Shown: piece by piece, positions 1,483 through 49,190 of the stretch
Numbering within the stretch: the stretch's first letter is position 1
Layout: the number at the start of each line of letters is the position of its first letter
NCBI RefSeq assembly: GCF_003018235.1
Contig: NZ_CP027437.1
DNA: 64,000 nt
Source: Escherichia coli
Lineage (GTDB): Bacteria > Pseudomonadota > Gammaproteobacteria > Enterobacterales > Enterobacteriaceae
Direction: 5' to 3' (one strand)
The notes under the pieces: model-generated
Databases searched by the model: none
What the model saw: only the letters and a program-made list of their open reading frames with translations
Told to the model about the DNA's origin: nothing
Made by a program: the position numbers and the translations under genes

Positions 1483-1505
1483 ACCGCTGTAATAAAGGAG
1501 AAATC

Positions 1506-1892
1506 ATGAGCAAAACTATCGCGACGGAAAATGCACCGGCAGCTATCGGTCCTTACGTACAGGGCGTTGATCTGGGCAATATGATCATCACCTCCGGTCA
1601 GATCCCGGTAAATCCGAAAACGGGCGAAGTACCGGCAGACGTCGCTGCACAGGCACGTCAGTCGCTGGATAACGTAAAAGCGATCGTCGAAGCCGCAGGC
1701 CTGAAAGTGGGCGACATCGTTAAAACCACCGTGTTTGTGAAAGATCTGAACGACTTCGCAACCGTTAATGCTACCTACGAAGCCTTCTTCACCGAACACA
1801 ATGCCACCTTCCCGGCACGTTCTTGCGTTGAAGTTGCCCGTCTGCCGAAAGACGTGAAGATTGAGATCGAAGCGATCGCTGTTCGTCGCTAA
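1506..1892 (+). CDS. ridA: RidA (YjgF) enamine/imine deaminase
   Basis: 128-aa product starting MSKTIATENAPAAIGPY; ORF track start 1434 is an upstream in-frame extension; RBS AGGAG before the ATG at 1506. Confidence 0.9.
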   Translation: MSKTIATENAPAAIGPYVQGVDLGNMIITSGQIPVNPKTGEVPADVAAQARQSLDNVKAIVEAAGLKVGDIVKTTVFVKDLNDFATVNATYEAFFTEHNATFPARSCVEVARLPKDVKIEIEAIAVRR

Positions 1893-1950
1893 TCTTGACG
1901 GAAATCCGGGCTATCATGCCCGGATTAAGTCTGATGACAAAAGCAAAATC

Positions 1951-3259
<1,309 letters not shown>

Positions 3260-3284
3260 GTGATTCCTGCAATTTATTGAATTT

Positions 3285-3319
3285 GTAGGCCGGATTGGGC
3301 GTTTACGCCGCATCCGGCA
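3285..3319. repeat. REP palindrome (GTAGGCCGGATTGGGCGTTTACGCCGCATCCGGCA)
   Basis: Imperfect palindrome with GCCGGAT/ATCCGGC arms. Confidence 0.45.
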
Positions 3320-3377
3320 TGAACAAAGCTCACTTTGTCTGCAATCTGAATCCGGGCCACCATGCCCAGTTTATTCT

Positions 3378-6074
3378 TTACTGCCAGCCGTAACGACGGC
3401 TATAGAACCCTTTCACCAACTGGGTTAACGTCATATACCCTGCCAGAATCGCAACCAGCCACGGGAAATAGCTTAACGGCAGCGCCTGCAGCTGCAGATA
3501 ACTGGCCAGCGGTGAAAACGGCAATGCGATCCCGACAATCATCACGATCACGGTCATGATCATTAACGGCCACGATGCACAGCTCTGAATAAACGGTACA
3601 CGACGGGTGCGGATCATATGCACAATCAGCGTTTGCGACAGTAAGCCCACCACAAACCAGCCCGACTGGAACAGCGTTTGCGTTTCCGGCGTGTTGGCAT
3701 GGAATACCCACCACATCAGGCAAAACGTCAGAATATCGAAGATCGAGCTGATCGGTCCGAAGAAGATCATAAAGCGCCCCAGATCCGCCGGATTCCAACG
3801 CTGCGGCTTTTGAATTTGCTCATCGTCGACGTTATCAAACGGGATCGCCACCTGTGACACATCGTACAGCAGGTTCTGAATAAGCAAGTGTAACGGCAAC
3901 ATCGGCAGGAAGGGCAAGAAAGCACTCGCCACCAGCACGCTGAACACATTACCGAAGTTAGAGCTCGCCGTCATTTTGATGTATTTCAGCATGTTGGCGA
4001 AAGTGCGACGTCCCTCAATAACCCCCTCTTCCAGCACCATCAGGCTTTTTTCCAGCAGGATGATATCAGCCGCTTCACGGGCAATATCTACCGCGCCGTC
4101 CACAGAAATGCCGATATCCGCAGCACGTAAGGCGGGCGCATCATTTATACCATCGCCCATAAAGCCAACCACATGCCCTTCGCGCTTCAGTAAGGTCACA
4201 ATGCGTTCTTTATGCATCGGCGTCAGGCGAGCAAACAGCGTGGTGCGCTGTGCGAGATTTGCCAGTTCATCGTCAGATAGCGTTTCAATATCACTACCAA
4301 TGACCACCTCTCCCGCGTCCAGCCCCACTTCATGGCACACTTTCGCTGCAACTAACTCACTGTCGCCAGTAAGGATTTTTACGGTAATGCCACTCGCTTT
4401 TAATGCCTTCAGTGCCGGAGCAGTTGTCTCTTTTGGCGGATCAAGGAAAGCAATATATCCTTCGAGGATCAGGTCGGATTCATCCGCTCGCTGGTAATCG
4501 CCTTCACGCGCTGGCAGGTATTTCGTCGCCACCGCAACCACGCGCAGCCCCTGACGATTCAGCGTATCGGTAACCCGCTTAATCTTACGCAGCATGATGT
4601 CATCGAGTGGTACAATCTCGCCATTGTGACGCACCTGCGAACACACATTGAGGATTTCCTGCAATGCACCTTTGCAAACCAGCTGATGGTGCTCGGTATT
4701 TTCTGCCACTACCACCGACATCCGGCGACGCTCGAAATCAAACGGAATCTCATCAATTTTTTGCCAACGGCTGGCCAGCGAGCGCGCTGACTCTTCATCC
4801 GTACGTTCGAGCACCGCGGTATCAAGCAGGTTTTTAAGTCCGGTCTGGTAATGACTGTTCAACCACGCGCTATGCAGCACGCGTTCGCTGGTTTTACCGG
4901 AGATATCGGTATGATTCTCCAGCACAATTTTGTCCTGCGTCAGGGTGCCGGTTTTATCAGTGCACAGAATATCCATTGCGCCAAAGTTCTGAATGGCATC
5001 CAGATGCTTGACGATCACTTTCTGTTTCGACAGCTTTACTGCGCCGCGCGCCAGCGTCGAGGTAACAATCATCGGCAACATTTCTGGCGTTAAGCCTACC
5101 GCGACCGAAAGCGCAAACAGTGCCGCTTCCCACCAGTCACCTTTGGTGTAACCGTTGATAAGCAACACCACCGGAGCCATCACCAGCATAAAGCGAATCA
5201 GCAGCATACTGACGCGGCTGATCCCTTGCTGAAAGGCATTCGGCTCGCTTTCCTGCTCACTAACACGCCCCGCCAGTTGACCAAACCAAGTGTTGGCTCC
5301 TGTAGCAATCACCATTGCTTGTGCCGTGCCGCTCACCACGGTGGTGCCCATAAAACACAGGGTGTCGCACTCCAGCGGATTGCTGTGCTCCGGCTGGCGA
5401 GTGGTTGCAGCTTTTTCTACGGGCAGAGACTCGCCGGTTAACGACGCCTGAGCGACGAACAGATCCCGCGCCTGCAAGATACGTAAATCTGCCGGGATCA
5501 TATCTCCCGCCGCCAGTTTTATAATATCGCCGGGCACCAGCTGGTCGATCGGGATCTCCAGCCAGCCATTTTCGCCTTTGTCGTTAATTACGCGCAGCAC
5601 CGTCGCGGTATTGCTGACCATCGCTTTCAGGGCATCTGCCGCTTTAGTGGAACGTGCTTCCTGAATAAAGTTCAGCAACGTAGAAATAGCGACCATTAGC
5701 GCGATAACACCCGCGGCAAATAAATCTTCCGTGGCGTAAGAAATAGCGCCGAGAATGGTGAGTAAAATATTAAAGGGGTTGCGATAGCAGACCCATAAAT
5801 GAACCCACCACGGCGACGGTTGTTGTGCGGGTAATTTATTTTCACCATGTTGTTCGCGGGCAGATTCCACTTCCGCCTGATTTAATCCTTCCGGATGGGT
5901 GTCGAACGTTTTCCACAATTCTTCTTCGGGCATCACCGCCATTTTCAGGCAATGCGCACTTAAGGACGGCGGGACCGCCGTATTCACTGTCTGCTGCGCG
6001 CCAGGCAATGGATCGCGATGAACCAGACGGGAAGGTAAATGGCGAATGAACCGGGTAAAAATTTCTTTAAACAT
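3378..6074 (-). CDS. mgtA: Mg2+-importing P-type ATPase
   Basis: 898-aa ORF; P-type ATPase motifs DKTGTLT and GDGINDAPAL visible in translation. Confidence 0.95.
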   Translation of the reverse strand: MFKEIFTRFIRHLPSRLVHRDPLPGAQQTVNTAVPPSLSAHCLKMAVMPEEELWKTFDTHPEGLNQAEVESAREQHGENKLPAQQPSPWWVHLWVCYRNPFNILLTILGAISYATEDLFAAGVIALMVAISTLLNFIQEARSTKAADALKAMVSNTATVLRVINDKGENGWLEIPIDQLVPGDIIKLAAGDMIPADLRILQARDLFVAQASLTGESLPVEKAATTRQPEHSNPLECDTLCFMGTTVVSGTAQAMVIATGANTWFGQLAGRVSEQESEPNAFQQGISRVSMLLIRFMLVMAPVVLLINGYTKGDWWEAALFALSVAVGLTPEMLPMIVTSTLARGAVKLSKQKVIVKHLDAIQNFGAMDILCTDKTGTLTQDKIVLENHTDISGKTSERVLHSAWLNSHYQTGLKNLLDTAVLERTDEESARSLASRWQKIDEIPFDFERRRMSVVVAENTEHHQLVCKGALQEILNVCSQVRHNGEIVPLDDIMLRKIKRVTDTLNRQGLRVVAVATKYLPAREGDYQRADESDLILEGYIAFLDPPKETTAPALKALKASGITVKILTGDSELVAAKVCHEVGLDAGEVVIGSDIETLSDDELANLAQRTTLFARLTPMHKERIVTLLKREGHVVGFMGDGINDAPALRAADIGISVDGAVDIAREAADIILLEKSLMVLEEGVIEGRRTFANMLKYIKMTASSNFGNVFSVLVASAFLPFLPMLPLHLLIQNLLYDVSQVAIPFDNVDDEQIQKPQRWNPADLGRFMIFFGPISSIFDILTFCLMWWVFHANTPETQTLFQSGWFVVGLLSQTLIVHMIRTRRVPFIQSCASWPLMIMTVIVMIVGIALPFSPLASYLQLQALPLSYFPWLVAILAGYMTLTQLVKGFYSRRYGWQ

Positions 6075-6340
6075 AAGGAGTCCCTCCGCACTGTCTGAAA
6101 CAGTACAGAAATGTCTTCAGGCGTGGCGAAGCCTTACCTGAAGGTAATAAAGCTGAGCAGGGACGTTAAAACGTCACGGCCTTACGCATCCGGTAACGCC
6201 GTGAAAAGACGGGCTTACCGGAAAAGTTTTAATCTCCGTCGAGGGAGAGGCGTGGGATCAGGTTCCATATAACCTCCGGTAAGTGAAAAAAGCGCCGCAA
6301 ATAATAAGGAGAATCCAATAATATTCGTAGCATCTATGGC
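6075..6340 (-). promoter_or_regulatory. mgtA 5' leader (Mg2+/proline-responsive attenuator region)
   Basis: Long untranslated leader upstream of mgtA containing the mgtL leader ORF; extent approximate. Confidence 0.5.
6215..6268 (-). CDS. mgtL: mgtA leader peptide (17 aa, [17 protein letters not shown])
   Basis: Last 17 codons of the spurious 113-aa ORF 6215..6556; ATG at 6268-6266; proline-rich. Confidence 0.7.
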
Positions 6341-6452
6341 GATATAATACCTGCTGGCAACTAAACCAACGATAAACCAGACTTTACCCATTGCTGAATG
6401 CACGGGTAAAGTTAGGCTCAAATAATTAAACAACACGTTACGGGACAACAGG

Positions 6453-7400
6453 ATGCAAAATCGGCTGACCATCAAAGACATCGCGCGCTTAAGCGGCGTG
6501 GGGAAATCTACGGTTTCCCGGGTGCTGAATAACGAAAGCGGCGTGAGCCAGCGCACGCGCGAGCGTGTTGAAGCAGTGATGAATCAGCATGGATTTTCCC
6601 CTTCCCGCTCTGCGCGCGCTATGCGTGGGCAAAGCGATAAAGTGGTCGCCATCATTGTTACCCGTCTGGATTCGTTGTCAGAAAATCTCGCCGTTCAAAC
6701 CATGCTGCCAGCGTTCTATGAACAAGGTTACGATCCAATCATGATGGAAAGTCAGTTTTCCCCGCAATTAGTTGCCGAACATTTGGGGGTGCTGAAACGG
6801 CGTAATATCGACGGCGTAGTGCTGTTCGGTTTTACCGGCATAACAGAAGAAATGTTAGCCCACTGGCAGTCATCGCTGGTTCTGCTGGCGCGTGACGCAA
6901 AAGGCTTTGCTTCGGTCTGTTATGACGACGAAGGGGCAATCAAGATCCTGATGCAACGGCTGTATGACCAGGGACATCGTAATATCAGTTATCTCGGCGT
7001 GCCGCACAGTGACGTGACGACCGGTAAGCGACGTCACGAAGCCTACCTGGCGTTCTGCAAAGCGCATAAACTGCATCCCGTTGCCGCCCTGCCAGGCCTT
7101 GCTATGAAGCAAGGCTATGAGAACGTAGCAAAAGTGATTACGCCTGAAACTACCGCCTTACTGTGCGCAACCGACACGCTGGCACTTGGTGCAAGTAAAT
7201 ACCTGCAAGAGCAACGCATCGACACCTTGCAACTGGCGAGCGTCGGTAATACGCCGTTAATGAAATTCCTCCATCCGGAGATCGTCACCGTAGATCCTGG
7301 TTACGCCGAAGCTGGACGCCAGGCGGCCTGCCAGTTGATCGCGCAGGTAACCGGGCGCAGCGAACCGCAACAAATCATCATCCCCGCCACCCTGTCCTGA
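6453..7400 (+). CDS. treR: trehalose operon repressor (LacI family)
   Basis: 315-aa ORF; N-terminal HTH IKDIARLSGVGKSTVSRVLN. Confidence 0.9.
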   Translation: MQNRLTIKDIARLSGVGKSTVSRVLNNESGVSQRTRERVEAVMNQHGFSPSRSARAMRGQSDKVVAIIVTRLDSLSENLAVQTMLPAFYEQGYDPIMMESQFSPQLVAEHLGVLKRRNIDGVVLFGFTGITEEMLAHWQSSLVLLARDAKGFASVCYDDEGAIKILMQRLYDQGHRNISYLGVPHSDVTTGKRRHEAYLAFCKAHKLHPVAALPGLAMKQGYENVAKVITPETTALLCATDTLALGASKYLQEQRIDTLQLASVGNTPLMKFLHPEIVTVDPGYAEAGRQAACQLIAQVTGRSEPQQIIIPATLS

Positions 7401-7518: not shown

Positions 7519-8940
7519 ATGATGAGCAAAATAAACCAAACGGATATCGATCGGTTGATTGAACTGGTCGGCGGGCGCGGCAATATTGCGACGGTGAGCC
7601 ACTGTATTACTCGCCTGCGCTTTGTCCTCAACCAACCGGCCAATGCCAGACCGAAAGAAATTGAGCAACTCCCCATGGTGAAAGGCTGTTTCACCAATGC
7701 CGGGCAATTTCAGGTGGTGATTGGCACCAACGTGGGTGATTACTATCAAGCACTGATTGCGTCAACCGGACAGGCGCAGGTTGATAAAGAGCAGGTAAAA
7801 AAAGCCGCACGGCAGAATATGAAATGGCATGAGCAGTTGATCTCTCATTTCGCGGAGATCTTCTTCCCGTTGCTGCCCGCGCTGATTAGCGGCGGTTTGA
7901 TCCTCGGGTTTCGCAATGTGATCGGCGATTTGCCCATGAGCAACGGTCAAACGCTGGCGCAAATGTACCCTTCCCTGCAAACGATCTACGATTTTCTGTG
8001 GTTGATCGGTGAAGCGATCTTCTTCTACCTGCCGGTCGGGATTTGCTGGTCAGCGGTGAAAAAAATGGGCGGCACGCCGATCCTTGGTATCGTGCTTGGC
8101 GTAACGCTGGTTTCTCCACAGCTGATGAACGCTTATCTGCTCGGGCAGCAGCTGCCAGAAGTGTGGGACTTTGGCATGTTCAGCATCGCCAAAGTGGGCT
8201 ATCAGGCGCAGGTGATCCCGGCACTGTTAGCCGGGCTGGCGCTGGGCGTTATTGAAACTCGCCTTAAACGCATCGTGCCGGATTACCTCTATCTGGTGGT
8301 GGTGCCCGTCTGTTCGCTGATCCTCGCGGTGTTCCTCGCCCATGCGCTGATTGGTCCGTTTGGTCGCATGATTGGCGATGGCGTTGCCTTTGCGGTACGT
8401 CACCTGATGACCGGCAGCTTTGCTCCGATTGGCGCGGCATTGTTTGGCTTCCTGTACGCCCCACTGGTGATCACCGGCGTACACCAGACCACGCTTGCTA
8501 TTGATTTGCAGATGATTCAAAGCATGGGTGGCACGCCAGTGTGGCCGCTGATTGCACTGTCGAATATCGCTCAGGGCTCCGCCGTGATAGGTATTATCAT
8601 TTCCAGCCGCAAGCACAATGAACGCGAGATCTCCGTGCCTGCCGCTATCTCCGCCTGGCTTGGAGTCACTGAGCCTGCTATGTACGGCATCAACCTGAAA
8701 TATCGCTTCCCGATGCTGTGCGCGATGATTGGTTCTGGTCTGGCAGGATTGCTATGCGGCCTGAACGGCGTTATGGCGAATGGCATCGGCGTAGGCGGCC
8801 TGCCGGGAATTCTCTCGATTCAACCGAGCTACTGGCAGGTGTTTGCGCTGGCAATGGCTATCGCCATCATCATCCCGATTGTACTCACCTCGTTTATCTA
8901 TCAGCGGAAATACCGCCTGGGCACGCTGGACATTGTTTAA
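7519..8940 (+). CDS. treB: PTS trehalose-specific EIIBC component
   Basis: 473-aa ORF; EIIB cysteine motif VSHCITRLR near the N-terminus; polytopic membrane domain. Confidence 0.9.
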   Translation: MMSKINQTDIDRLIELVGGRGNIATVSHCITRLRFVLNQPANARPKEIEQLPMVKGCFTNAGQFQVVIGTNVGDYYQALIASTGQAQVDKEQVKKAARQNMKWHEQLISHFAEIFFPLLPALISGGLILGFRNVIGDLPMSNGQTLAQMYPSLQTIYDFLWLIGEAIFFYLPVGICWSAVKKMGGTPILGIVLGVTLVSPQLMNAYLLGQQLPEVWDFGMFSIAKVGYQAQVIPALLAGLALGVIETRLKRIVPDYLYLVVVPVCSLILAVFLAHALIGPFGRMIGDGVAFAVRHLMTGSFAPIGAALFGFLYAPLVITGVHQTTLAIDLQMIQSMGGTPVWPLIALSNIAQGSAVIGIIISSRKHNEREISVPAAISAWLGVTEPAMYGINLKYRFPMLCAMIGSGLAGLLCGLNGVMANGIGVGGLPGILSIQPSYWQVFALAMAIAIIIPIVLTSFIYQRKYRLGTLDIV

Positions 8941-8989
8941 TTTTCTTCGGGGCGCAATTGCGCCCCCTCGCATTTGCAGGAATAACGTA

Positions 8990-10645
8990 ATGACTCATCT
9001 TCCCCACTGGTGGCAAAACGGCGTTATCTACCAGATTTATCCAAAAAGTTTTCAGGACACCACGGGTAGCGGCACCGGCGATTTACGTGGCGTTATCCAA
9101 CGCCTGGATTATCTGCATAAACTGGGCGTTGATGCCATCTGGCTAACCCCCTTTTATGTCTCTCCCCAGGTCGATAACGGTTACGACGTAGCGAATTATA
9201 CGGCGATTGATCCCACCTATGGCACGCTGGACGATTTTGACGAACTGGTGACACAGGCAAAATCGCGCGGGATTCGTATCATTCTCGATATGGTGTTTAA
9301 CCATACCTCTACCCAACATGCCTGGTTTCGCGAGGCGCTGAACAAAGCAAGCCCTTACCGCCAGTTTTATATCTGGCGCGATGGAGAACCAGAAACACCA
9401 CCGAACAACTGGCGTTCAAAATTTGGCGGTAGTGCGTGGCGCTGGCATGCGGAAAGCGAACAGTACTATTTGCATCTCTTTGCACCAGAACAGGCGGATC
9501 TCAACTGGGAGAATCCAGCGGTACGCGCAGAGCTGAAAAAAGTCTGTGAGTTCTGGGCCGATCGTGGGGTCGACGGGTTGCGCCTGGATGTGGTGAATCT
9601 GATCTCCAAAGATCCGCGTTACCCTGAAGACCAGGATGGCGACGGGCGTCGCTTCTACACCGACGGGCCACGAGCACACGAGTTTTTGCACGAGATGAAC
9701 CGCGATGTGTTTACGCCACGCGGGTTAATGACCGTAGGTGAAATGTCCTCCACCAGCCTTGAGCATTGCCAGCGATACGCGGCTCTGACAGGCAGTGAAT
9801 TGTCGATGACCTTTAATTTTCATCACCTGAAGGTCGATTATCCCGGTGGTGAGAAATGGACGCTGGCTAAACCTGACTTTGTGGCGTTGAAAACATTGTT
9901 CCGCCACTGGCAACAAGGAATGCACAACGTGGCATGGAATGCCTTGTTCTGGTGTAACCACGATCAGCCGCGCATTGTTTCTCGCTTTGGTGATGAAGGT
10001 GAATACCGCGTGCCTGCGGCAAAAATGCTGGCGATGGTGCTGCATGGCATGCAGGGAACGCCGTATATCTACCAGGGCGAAGAGATTGGCATGACCAACC
10101 CGCATTTCACGCGCATTACTGACTATCGCGACGTGGAGAGCCTCAATATGTTTGCCGAGCTGCGCAACGATGGGCGTGATGCCGACGAGTTATTGGCAAT
10201 CCTCGCCAGTAAATCCCGTGACAACAGTCGCACACCCATGCAATGGAGCAACGACGATAATGCCGGGTTTACGGCTGGCGAACCGTGGATTGGCCTGGGC
10301 GATAACTATCAACAAATCAACGTAGAAGCCGCGCTGGCCGATGAGTCCTCGGTGTTTTACACCTACCAAAAGTTAATCGCACTGCGTAAGCAAGAAGCCG
10401 TTCTGACATGGGGCGATTACCAGGATCTGCTGCCAAACAGCCCTGTATTGTGGTGCTATCGCCGTGAATGGAAGGGGCAAACCTTACTGGTCATTGCCAA
10501 CCTTAGCCGTGAGACCCAACCCTGGCAGCCAGGGAAAATGCTCGGCAACTGGCAGCTTGTGATGCATAACTACGAAGAAGCCTCACCACAACCCTGTGCC
10601 ATGACTTTACGGCCTTTTGAGGCTGTCTGGTGGTTACAGAAGTAA
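8990..10645 (+). CDS. treC: trehalose-6-phosphate hydrolase (GH13)
   Basis: 551-aa product from ATG 8990 (MTHLPHWWQNGVIYQIYPKSF); ORF-track start 8843 is an upstream extension overlapping treB. Confidence 0.9.
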   Translation: MTHLPHWWQNGVIYQIYPKSFQDTTGSGTGDLRGVIQRLDYLHKLGVDAIWLTPFYVSPQVDNGYDVANYTAIDPTYGTLDDFDELVTQAKSRGIRIILDMVFNHTSTQHAWFREALNKASPYRQFYIWRDGEPETPPNNWRSKFGGSAWRWHAESEQYYLHLFAPEQADLNWENPAVRAELKKVCEFWADRGVDGLRLDVVNLISKDPRYPEDQDGDGRRFYTDGPRAHEFLHEMNRDVFTPRGLMTVGEMSSTSLEHCQRYAALTGSELSMTFNFHHLKVDYPGGEKWTLAKPDFVALKTLFRHWQQGMHNVAWNALFWCNHDQPRIVSRFGDEGEYRVPAAKMLAMVLHGMQGTPYIYQGEEIGMTNPHFTRITDYRDVESLNMFAELRNDGRDADELLAILASKSRDNSRTPMQWSNDDNAGFTAGEPWIGLGDNYQQINVEAALADESSVFYTYQKLIALRKQEAVLTWGDYQDLLPNSPVLWCYRREWKGQTLLVIANLSRETQPWQPGKMLGNWQLVMHNYEEASPQPCAMTLRPFEAVWWLQK

Positions 10646-23186: not shown

Positions 23187-23290
23187 CGCCAGATAAGACA
23201 CAACTGCGTCGCATCAGGCATCTCGCACAACCGCCGGATGCGGCGTGAATGCCTTATCCGGCGGCCCACAAGTCGGCATCAGGCATTGAT
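23187..23290. repeat. BIME (cluster of REP palindromes)
   Basis: GCCAGATAAGACA...GCATCAGGC, GCCGGATGCGGCGTGAATGCCTTATCCGGC and GGCATCAGGCATTGATGCCC palindromes in tandem. Confidence 0.5.
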
Positions 23291-32820: not shown

Positions 32821-32997
32821 AGTTTTTCATTTATCAGCAGTCTGAATTTTAACCCTCTGGCGGCTTTACAGTACCTTACGCTATACTAGCCACTGAAAAT
32901 GCCGGTTCACTTTCTTCGAATCGGCTTTCAATGTGTATTTCACACAAATTAATCAACTTCCCCTTCCGAGGATCTGGCCTGAAAGGTCGGATAAGAT

Positions 32998-37440: not shown

Positions 37441-37629
37441 TTCTCCACCTCGTCTCTGTGAGCGGTGTTAACTTATTGTTTTACTTATACCCTATCGTTA
37501 ATGAATGCGCCAACTGTGATAGTGTCATCATTTTCAAAGCGTAAAATTGTGGCATTCTTCACTGTTCTATAAGTAAGACGTTTATTCTCTCTTTTCTTTC
37601 GTATTCCCGATGATAAAAGGATGTCCCTG

Positions 37630-48676: not shown

Positions 48677-49190
<514 letters not shown>

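Follow-up and report, generated by a model that had tools for sequence, protein, structure and literature searches.

The mgtA leader of an Escherichia coli chromosome: the 17-codon reading frame mgtL, its competing RNA stems and their conservation across Enterobacterales

The DNA upstream of mgtA in the sequence analyzed here, a 64,000-nucleotide stretch of an Escherichia coli chromosome (hereafter the window), is near certainly the mgtA leader of this species with its 17-codon leader ORF, mgtL, and we found no evidence contradicting this identification. It is also highly probable that the identification holds together with a switch coupled to mgtL translation, in which two stem-loops, A and B, compete with an alternative stem, C. 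The element is already known in full and nothing in it is new: it is the same as the mgtL/mgtA leader of E. coli K-12 (Rfam family RF01056), with identical peptide, transcribed leader, and gene context. The treBC-treR genes are divergent from mgtL-mgtA, as they are in K-12, and the MgtA ORF matches the TIGR01524 equivalog with 1607 bits (cutoff 611). The features of the locus are collected in Table 1.

Table 1. Features of the mgtA leader region, in window coordinates
Feature	Position	Strand	Basis or remark
mgtA, Mg2+-importing P-type ATPase, the regulated gene	3378..6074	-	898-aa ORF; RefSeq annotation
mgtA 5′ leader, ~263 nt	6075..6337	-	5′ end inferred from promoter
mgtA Shine-Dalgarno GGAGGG	6082..6087	-	sequence
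Small hairpin GACGU-UUUA-ACGUC	6162..6175	-	just after stem B
RF01056 (Magnesium-II) match, stem-loop A enclosing mgtL plus stem-loop B	6168..6283	-	Rfam covariance model
Stem-loop B, "high Mg2+ / mgtL fully translated" conformer	6176..6202	-	Rfam structure; arms ACGGCGUUAC / GUAAGGCCGU
Alternative stem C	6190..6221	-	6221..6209 (A 3′ arm and beyond) pairs with 6202..6190 (B 5′ arm)
Stem-loop A	6214..6283	-	Rfam structure, MFE fold; two small inner hairpins
mgtL, 17 codons plus stop	6215..6268	-	sequence; RefSeq CDS "mgtA regulatory leader peptide MgtL", WP_001387276.1
113-aa ORF, not a gene	6215..6556	-	mechanical ORF list; GTG start at 6556
mgtL Shine-Dalgarno GGAGG	6273..6277	-	4 nt before ATG; within stem A 5′ arm
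-10 hexamer TATTAT, PhoP-activated promoter	6344..6349	-	sequence only; 12 nt downstream of PhoP box
PhoP box (predicted), direct repeat GGTTTA-TCGTT-GGTTTA, -35 position of mgtA promoter	6362..6378	-	pattern match
treR	6453..7400	+	315-aa ORF, TIGR02405 equivalog match

Direct reading of the minus strand gives mgtL an ATG at 6268..6266 and a taa stop at 6217..6215, with the codons atg gaa cct gat ccc acg cct ctc cct cga cgg aga tta aaa ctt ttc cgg between them, and places its ATG 194 nt upstream of the mgtA ATG on the same strand. The columns of its Shine-Dalgarno sequence are at least 90% conserved in the leader alignment A1, described below. At 17 aa, the peptide falls under the 20-residue minimum of the NCBIfam scan; the doubled peptide was scanned instead and had no match, and since that scan is uninformative the name MgtL is taken from the PGAP annotation. 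A preliminary description of this DNA had recognized mgtL, its exact peptide, its start at ATG 6268 and its place in the mgtA leader, all of which the sequence and the RefSeq CDS bear out.

Nearly every complete E. coli genome (5425 of 5426) carries the region 5900..6600, in many cases at 100% identity, and the RefSeq features lying under these matches are treR, mgtA, and a 54-nt CDS, mgtL, at the offset of 6268..6215. We sampled the annotation of 60 records, taken at even steps down the full E. coli match ranking, and found the mgtL CDS correctly annotated by RefSeq/PGAP in all 59 full-length matches. The K-12 genome carries the same MgtL accession as the window and, over 6100..6400, differs from it by one base, C6357, in the promoter spacer, leaving the transcribed leader identical. 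The preliminary description had also held that mgtL is hidden and that automated callers either miss or over-extend it. This claim fails for the NCBI pipeline, because the sampled RefSeq genomes and K-12 have the 54-nt CDS correctly annotated, so that mgtL already stands in the public record. Ab initio callers that apply a minimum gene length may still miss or over-extend it.

The 60th sampled record, NZ_CP178558.1 (E. coli GCU-H1), has lost mgtL-mgtA through an IS1-associated deletion and is the only matching complete E. coli genome without most of the leader. Here (locus L083, 3001..3781), the treR-mgtA intergenic region runs directly into an IS1 copy once 68 nt of the query have been matched, and mgtL, mgtA, and part of ridA are absent, making it a natural mgtA deletion strain. 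Relative to K-12, the strain studied here does not differ in the element itself but has IS621 downstream of mgtA, outside the leader. There, a 326-aa ORF at 2170..3150 (+), named "IS110-like element IS621 family transposase" in matching genomes, lies between the mgtA 3′ end (3378) and ridA. Among 5426 complete E. coli genomes, 295 have an insertion at this ridA-mgtA intergenic site (at least 80% coverage of 1500..3500), and the site is empty in others, for instance NZ_CP033635.1. Elsewhere in the window, four Rfam matches exceed their thresholds: the ES239 sRNA at 37507..37629 (-) with 151.9 bits, the RpsF leader at 49070..49154 (-) with 110.1 bits, and STnc450 at 32879..32936 (+) with 77.2 bits are above their gathering scores, and naRNA4/CssrE at 23187..23263 (-), with 61.6 bits, is barely over its threshold of 59.5.

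The 113-aa ORF whose last 17 codons are the MgtL peptide is an artefact of mechanical stop-to-stop ORF listing. The reading in which it is a true protein-coding gene, with mgtL merely its C terminus, has in its favor only an open stretch of 113 codons beginning with a GTG, and the occurrence in some Citrobacter of a comparably long one, of up to 107 codons. However, its GTG lies ~220 nt upstream of the point where mgtA transcription is inferred to begin, the frame takes in the PhoP box, the -10 hexamer, and that point itself, and it overlaps the first 104 nt of treR in antisense. In a family scan, the best match to the ORF (E=0.022) scored 14.9 bits where the cutoff is 200, and the ORF is unannotated in every sampled RefSeq genome. 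Moreover, the stretch left open in frame upstream of the mgtL ATG is anything from 0 to 107 codons long across 40 species, and in most other Enterobacterales species it reaches back no more than 0-30 codons from this ATG, yet mgtL is always kept. On the strength of the missing family match, the missing RefSeq annotation and the unconserved extension, we rejected the ORF as a gene, a reading that is now hardly conceivable; the earlier judgment that it is spurious and overlaps the start of treR (6453, +) thus stands. An over-extension of the same kind affects treC, listed mechanically at 8843..10645 (+) with a TTG start and 600 aa, overlapping the end of treB (7519..8940); the RefSeq treC is 1656 nt long (551 aa).

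The sequence upstream of the leader has the features of a PhoP-activated promoter, namely a (T/G)GTTTA-N5-(T/G)GTTTA repeat at about -35 and a -10 hexamer ~12 nt downstream. The predicted PhoP box reads GGTTTATCGTTGGTTTA (6378..6362), and the pattern KGTTTAN5KGTTTA has this single match in the 64 kb window and 0 matches in 100 shuffles. A sigma-70 promoter scan of 5900..6600 returned no match and no -35 hexamer, which would be expected of an activator (PhoP)-dependent promoter; the promoter was recognized by its PhoP box. In E. coli, mgtA is under PhoQ/PhoP control (PMC11552253). From the position of the -10 hexamer, we infer that mgtA transcription starts near A6337. The PhoP box, the -10 hexamer, and this inferred start agree with the original assignment of the interval 6075..6340 to the mgtA leader, and the correspondence is far better than chance would give. 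An intrinsic-terminator scan of 5900..6600 found no such pattern in the leader; its one hit, at chance level, is inside treR and antisense. At the other end of the leader, the GGAG of the mgtA Shine-Dalgarno sequence (within GGAGGGACUCC, 6075..6090, minus strand) has CUCC, its complement, immediately after it and right ahead of the AUG, and the pair could, judging from these letters, form a tiny hairpin over the mgtA ribosome-binding site.

The leader RNA matches RF01056, the family of the Mg2+-responsive mgtA leader, over model positions 1-115 of 115, untruncated, scoring 125.8 bits where the gathering score is 40 (E=1.3e-26); up to E=1, Rfam has no other match in 5500..7000. In stem A, the 5′ arm (6283..6273, CUUACCGGAGG) carries the mgtL Shine-Dalgarno sequence, and the 3′ arm (6224..6214, UUUCCGGUAAG) carries the mgtL stop codon UAA. 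Stem C excludes both A and B. Folded as a whole, the leader (6338..6060) reaches -88 kcal/mol, a z of -3.99 relative to dinucleotide shuffles, and its MFE structure has A and B. However, the unconstrained MFE flips between A+B and C with the length of RNA folded, so that thermodynamic prediction alone cannot choose between them. The nascent leader (6337..6150) was also folded with a ribosome footprint masked: with the footprint at the mgtL stop, stem B folds, while with the footprint at codon 4, stem C folds. These masked folds reproduce the published logic, in which full translation leads to A/B and an early stall or drop-off leads to C.

The conservation of these stems was assessed on a MAFFT alignment of leaders from 38 species (A1), which was not fitted to any structure, using as control the same stems with their partners slid. 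Stems A and B together with the three small hairpins are 88% paired, with changes on both sides in 15 of 34 pairs, compared with 37-47% paired after a shift of the 3′ partners by 1-3 columns. Stem A by itself has 89% of cells paired across the 38 species but is mostly invariant, and covariation therefore says little about it. Stem B is 92% paired, with compensatory changes in 7 of its 10 pairs, and the small hairpin that follows it (6175..6162) is 80% paired, with compensatory changes in all five of its pairs (5/5). For the alternative stem C, 81% of cells are paired and both-side changes occur in 8 of 13 pairs, against 18-42% paired in the slid controls. Since A+B and C are both paired well above their slid controls, selection keeps both competing conformations. 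The preliminary description had proposed that an alignment of enterobacterial mgtA leaders would confirm conserved alternative stem-loops; A, B, and C are indeed all conserved, with compensatory changes.

The peptide was compared over a wider set of loci, obtained by scanning the first 400 residues of MgtA against species-representative genomes. This gave 80 loci, 40 of them from Enterobacterales, ranging from Escherichia and Citrobacter to Serratia, Yersinia, Rahnella, Rouxiella, and Acerihabitans, with no Salmonella locus among them. Every one of the 40 Enterobacterales loci has an mgtL-like ORF of 11-17 codons at a distance of 154-309 nt upstream of mgtA; it begins M-[D/E]-P-[D/A/V/I]-P, the consensus being M-[D/E]-P-D-P-T-P. 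Codon 2 encodes Asp in most species and Glu in E. coli. Pro3 and Pro5 are invariant in all 38 aligned leaders (38/38), their codons varying among CCC, CCT, CCA, and CCG, and over codons 2-7 of these leaders the mean column entropy is 0.28 at codon positions 1 and 2 alike and 0.95 at position 3. This codon-periodic pattern is what selection on the MgtL peptide leaves behind, and it lends indirect support to mgtL being translated and inversely controlling mgtA. The C-terminal half of MgtL varies freely, and the nucleotides there are constrained as RNA stems. No mgtL-like ORF is present in any of the ~40 loci from outside Enterobacterales (Pseudomonas, beta-proteobacteria, and unclassified MAGs), nor did these loci have any other consistent, conserved short ORF preceded by a Shine-Dalgarno sequence upstream of mgtA. 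In six Pseudomonas loci (L045, L047, L057, L063, L066, and L072), a frame beginning "MPLSR..." recurs ~240 nt upstream of the MgtA match; it has no Shine-Dalgarno sequence by a simple filter, and may for this reason be conserved RNA rather than a peptide.

Among the Enterobacterales, a Cedecea-like Enterobacter sp. (locus L028) and the Rouxiella, Rahnella, Serratia, Yersinia, and Acerihabitans loci (L031-L038) have the mgtL-like ORF ~190-290 nt upstream of mgtA. In the latter, Yersiniaceae-type group (L031-L038), mgtL is shortened to 11-16 codons, and the two Yersinia have GTG starts. The leaders of all these loci align with stems A, B, and C, yet RF01056 stays under its gathering score in every one of them. 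The mgtA leader family is broader than the RF01056 threshold detects.

In the proposed mechanism, the PhoP-activated promoter and the 5′ leader, with transcription starting near 6337, would act as a translation-coupled attenuator of mgtA, and the leader RNA would adopt one of two mutually exclusive folds, either stem-loop A, whose 5′ arm holds the Shine-Dalgarno sequence and whose 3′ arm holds the stop codon, beside stem-loop B, or else stem C. Where cytoplasmic Mg2+ (and proline supply) suffices, mgtL would be translated through all 17 codons, and the ribosome at the mgtL stop would cover the 3′ arm of A, allowing stem B to form; pyrimidine-rich flanks would then be exposed, and transcription would stop before mgtA. 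At low Mg2+, the ribosome would stall or fall off within the first six codons (M-E-P-D-P-T), and the freed 3′ arm of A would pair with the 5′ arm of B into stem C, letting RNA polymerase read into mgtA. The parts of the switch, their conservation and covariation, and the folding under modelled footprints come from the present analysis; the response to Mg2+ and proline, the translation of mgtL, the drop-off at EPDP, and the Rho dependence (in Salmonella) come from the literature.

That mgtL translation and Mg2+-dependent folding control read-through into mgtA is the model published by Cromie 2006, Park 2010, Zhao 2011, and Gall 2016, as cited in PMC11552253 and PMC12360218. In the published model of A/B versus C, both the prolines and the acidic residues of mgtL matter (PMC11552253), full translation of mgtL favors A/B and premature termination, and an early stall or drop-off favors C and read-through (PMC11552253, PMC12360218). 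In E. coli, translation is cut short within MEPDPT by the N-terminal EPDP motif when Mg2+ is low, a case of intrinsic ribosome destabilisation (IRD) (bioRxiv 10.1101/2021.02.02.429294), and IRD at MEPDPT is stronger in the absence of bL31 (bioRxiv 10.1101/2021.02.02.429294; PMC11552253). Direct evidence on mgtL translation and its inverse control of mgtA comes from yfp fusions in E. coli, toeprinting, and peptidyl-tRNA formed in the PURE system (PMC11282234; bioRxiv 10.1101/2021.02.02.429294), and a toeprint was obtained on mgtL with Pro3 in the P site (PMC11282234). EttA counteracts the drop-off at EPDP in E. coli, and in ΔettA bacteria, mgtL-yfp and mgtA-yfp fusions shift in opposite directions (PMC11282234). 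The preliminary description had attributed control of read-through to translation of the proline codons together with Mg2+-dependent folding. This agrees with the published model as far as it goes, but the wording in terms of prolines only is incomplete, since the acidic residues of EPDP matter equally in E. coli.

Both direct sensing of Mg2+ by the RNA and sensing by way of mgtL translation are under discussion (PMC11552253). One rival reading is that the leader is a pure, directly Mg2+-binding riboswitch, for whose Mg2+ sensing mgtL is dispensable and serves only the sensing of proline or osmotic conditions. The element was first proposed to work in this manner (Cromie 2006, as cited in PMC11552253), Rfam files RF01056 as a riboswitch aptamer, and Mg2+-dependent folding alone modulated Rho termination in vitro (Hollands 2012, as described in PMC11552253). 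However, a codon-periodic MgtL N terminus in 38 species would be needless if the RNA alone mattered, although proline sensing could also explain it. Two published results weigh further against direct binding: loss of bL31 raises MgtA 13-fold through mgtL translation (PMC11552253), and the E2Q/D4N substitutions alter the dependence on EttA, in that the ΔettA difference is gone for the mgtL fusion, and abolish detectable expression of the mgtA reporter (PMC11282234). We consider the purely direct riboswitch quite improbable, and prefer the switch coupled to mgtL translation.

The terminal step of this switch in E. coli is disputed, as the literature on Rho at mgtA conflicts. A Rho-dependent step was shown in Salmonella (Hollands 2012, as cited in PMC11552253 and PMC12360218). 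In E. coli, mgtA had a Rho termination score of 1.0 by ChIP-qPCR with a rho R66S mutant, for which its authors allowed that either the mechanism differs in E. coli or the R66S allele is uninformative (PMC5499598). A 2025 review of Rho repeats this caution, saying of the mechanism that it "may not be conserved in E. coli" (PMC12360218). Adams et al. mapped 3′ ends in the E. coli mgtA 5′ UTR and list mgtA as consistent with known Rho regulation (PMC7815308). Within the leader, two windows are C-rich and G-poor, 6267..6238 (C14/G5) and 6167..6138 (C10/G4), composition alone being weak evidence; together with the lack of an intrinsic-terminator pattern, they would fit a Rho-dependent step without proving it.

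These data bear on the alternative that the E. coli leader stops transcription, or reduces the mRNA, by a route other than Rho, such as pausing or arrest of RNA polymerase, cleavage by an RNase, or translational occlusion of mgtA, with the upstream switch as in Salmonella. The score of 1.0, obtained although RNA polymerase occupancy fell along mgtA (PMC5499598), speaks for such a route, as do the doubts of the 2025 review, but the R66S allele is only partially defective (PMC5499598), the E. coli EttA study reads its data with a Rho terminator (PMC11282234), and the 3′ ends listed by Adams et al. count against it, as do the C-rich, G-poor stretches and the fact that all stems are common to E. 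coli and Salmonella-type leaders. This alternative is rather doubtful. It is likewise unlikely, when taken as one combined statement, that the switch of mgtL and stems A, B, and C is conserved while its output in E. coli is not Rho termination and some other mechanism lowers mgtA transcription or mRNA. The possibility of a non-Rho output is a point raised by the literature rather than one revealed by the sequence.

The mgtA leader and MgtL of Salmonella enterica have the same architecture as the element described here, with a PhoP promoter, mgtL in stem A, and B versus C, and belong to the same Rfam family, and the related Enterobacteriaceae among the loci compared here keep every stem; they differ in that Rho dependence was demonstrated in Salmonella, whereas none was detected by ChIP in E. 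coli (PMC5499598, PMC12360218). The leader that precedes corA in E. coli and Salmonella, with its uORF corL, is built in a comparable manner, with A/B versus C/D folds, the uORF in stem A, and a Rho-dependent terminator (PMC11552253). Unlike mgtL, however, corL precedes another gene, encodes another peptide with one conserved proline and a UUG start, and is not under PhoP control; it is outside this window. As with the classical amino-acid attenuators trpL, hisL, and pheL, and with tnaC, the position of the ribosome on the short leader ORF mgtL selects the RNA fold and hence whether transcription continues. The trp and his attenuators rely on intrinsic terminators, whereas the mgtA leader has no such pattern, and in tnaC a Trp-arrested ribosome shields a rut site, whereas in mgtL, Mg2+ and proline are sensed by stalling or destabilisation at the N terminus.

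The mgtL/mgtA leader has been studied since 2006-2010, is present in Rfam, EcoCyc, and RefSeq, and is conserved in essentially every E. coli genome. It therefore serves here as a positive control, showing that a 17-codon regulatory ORF can be recovered from raw sequence even though it is buried in a 113-aa artefact, and that codon periodicity, covariation of competing stems, and folding under modelled ribosome footprints recover the published architecture of the leader.
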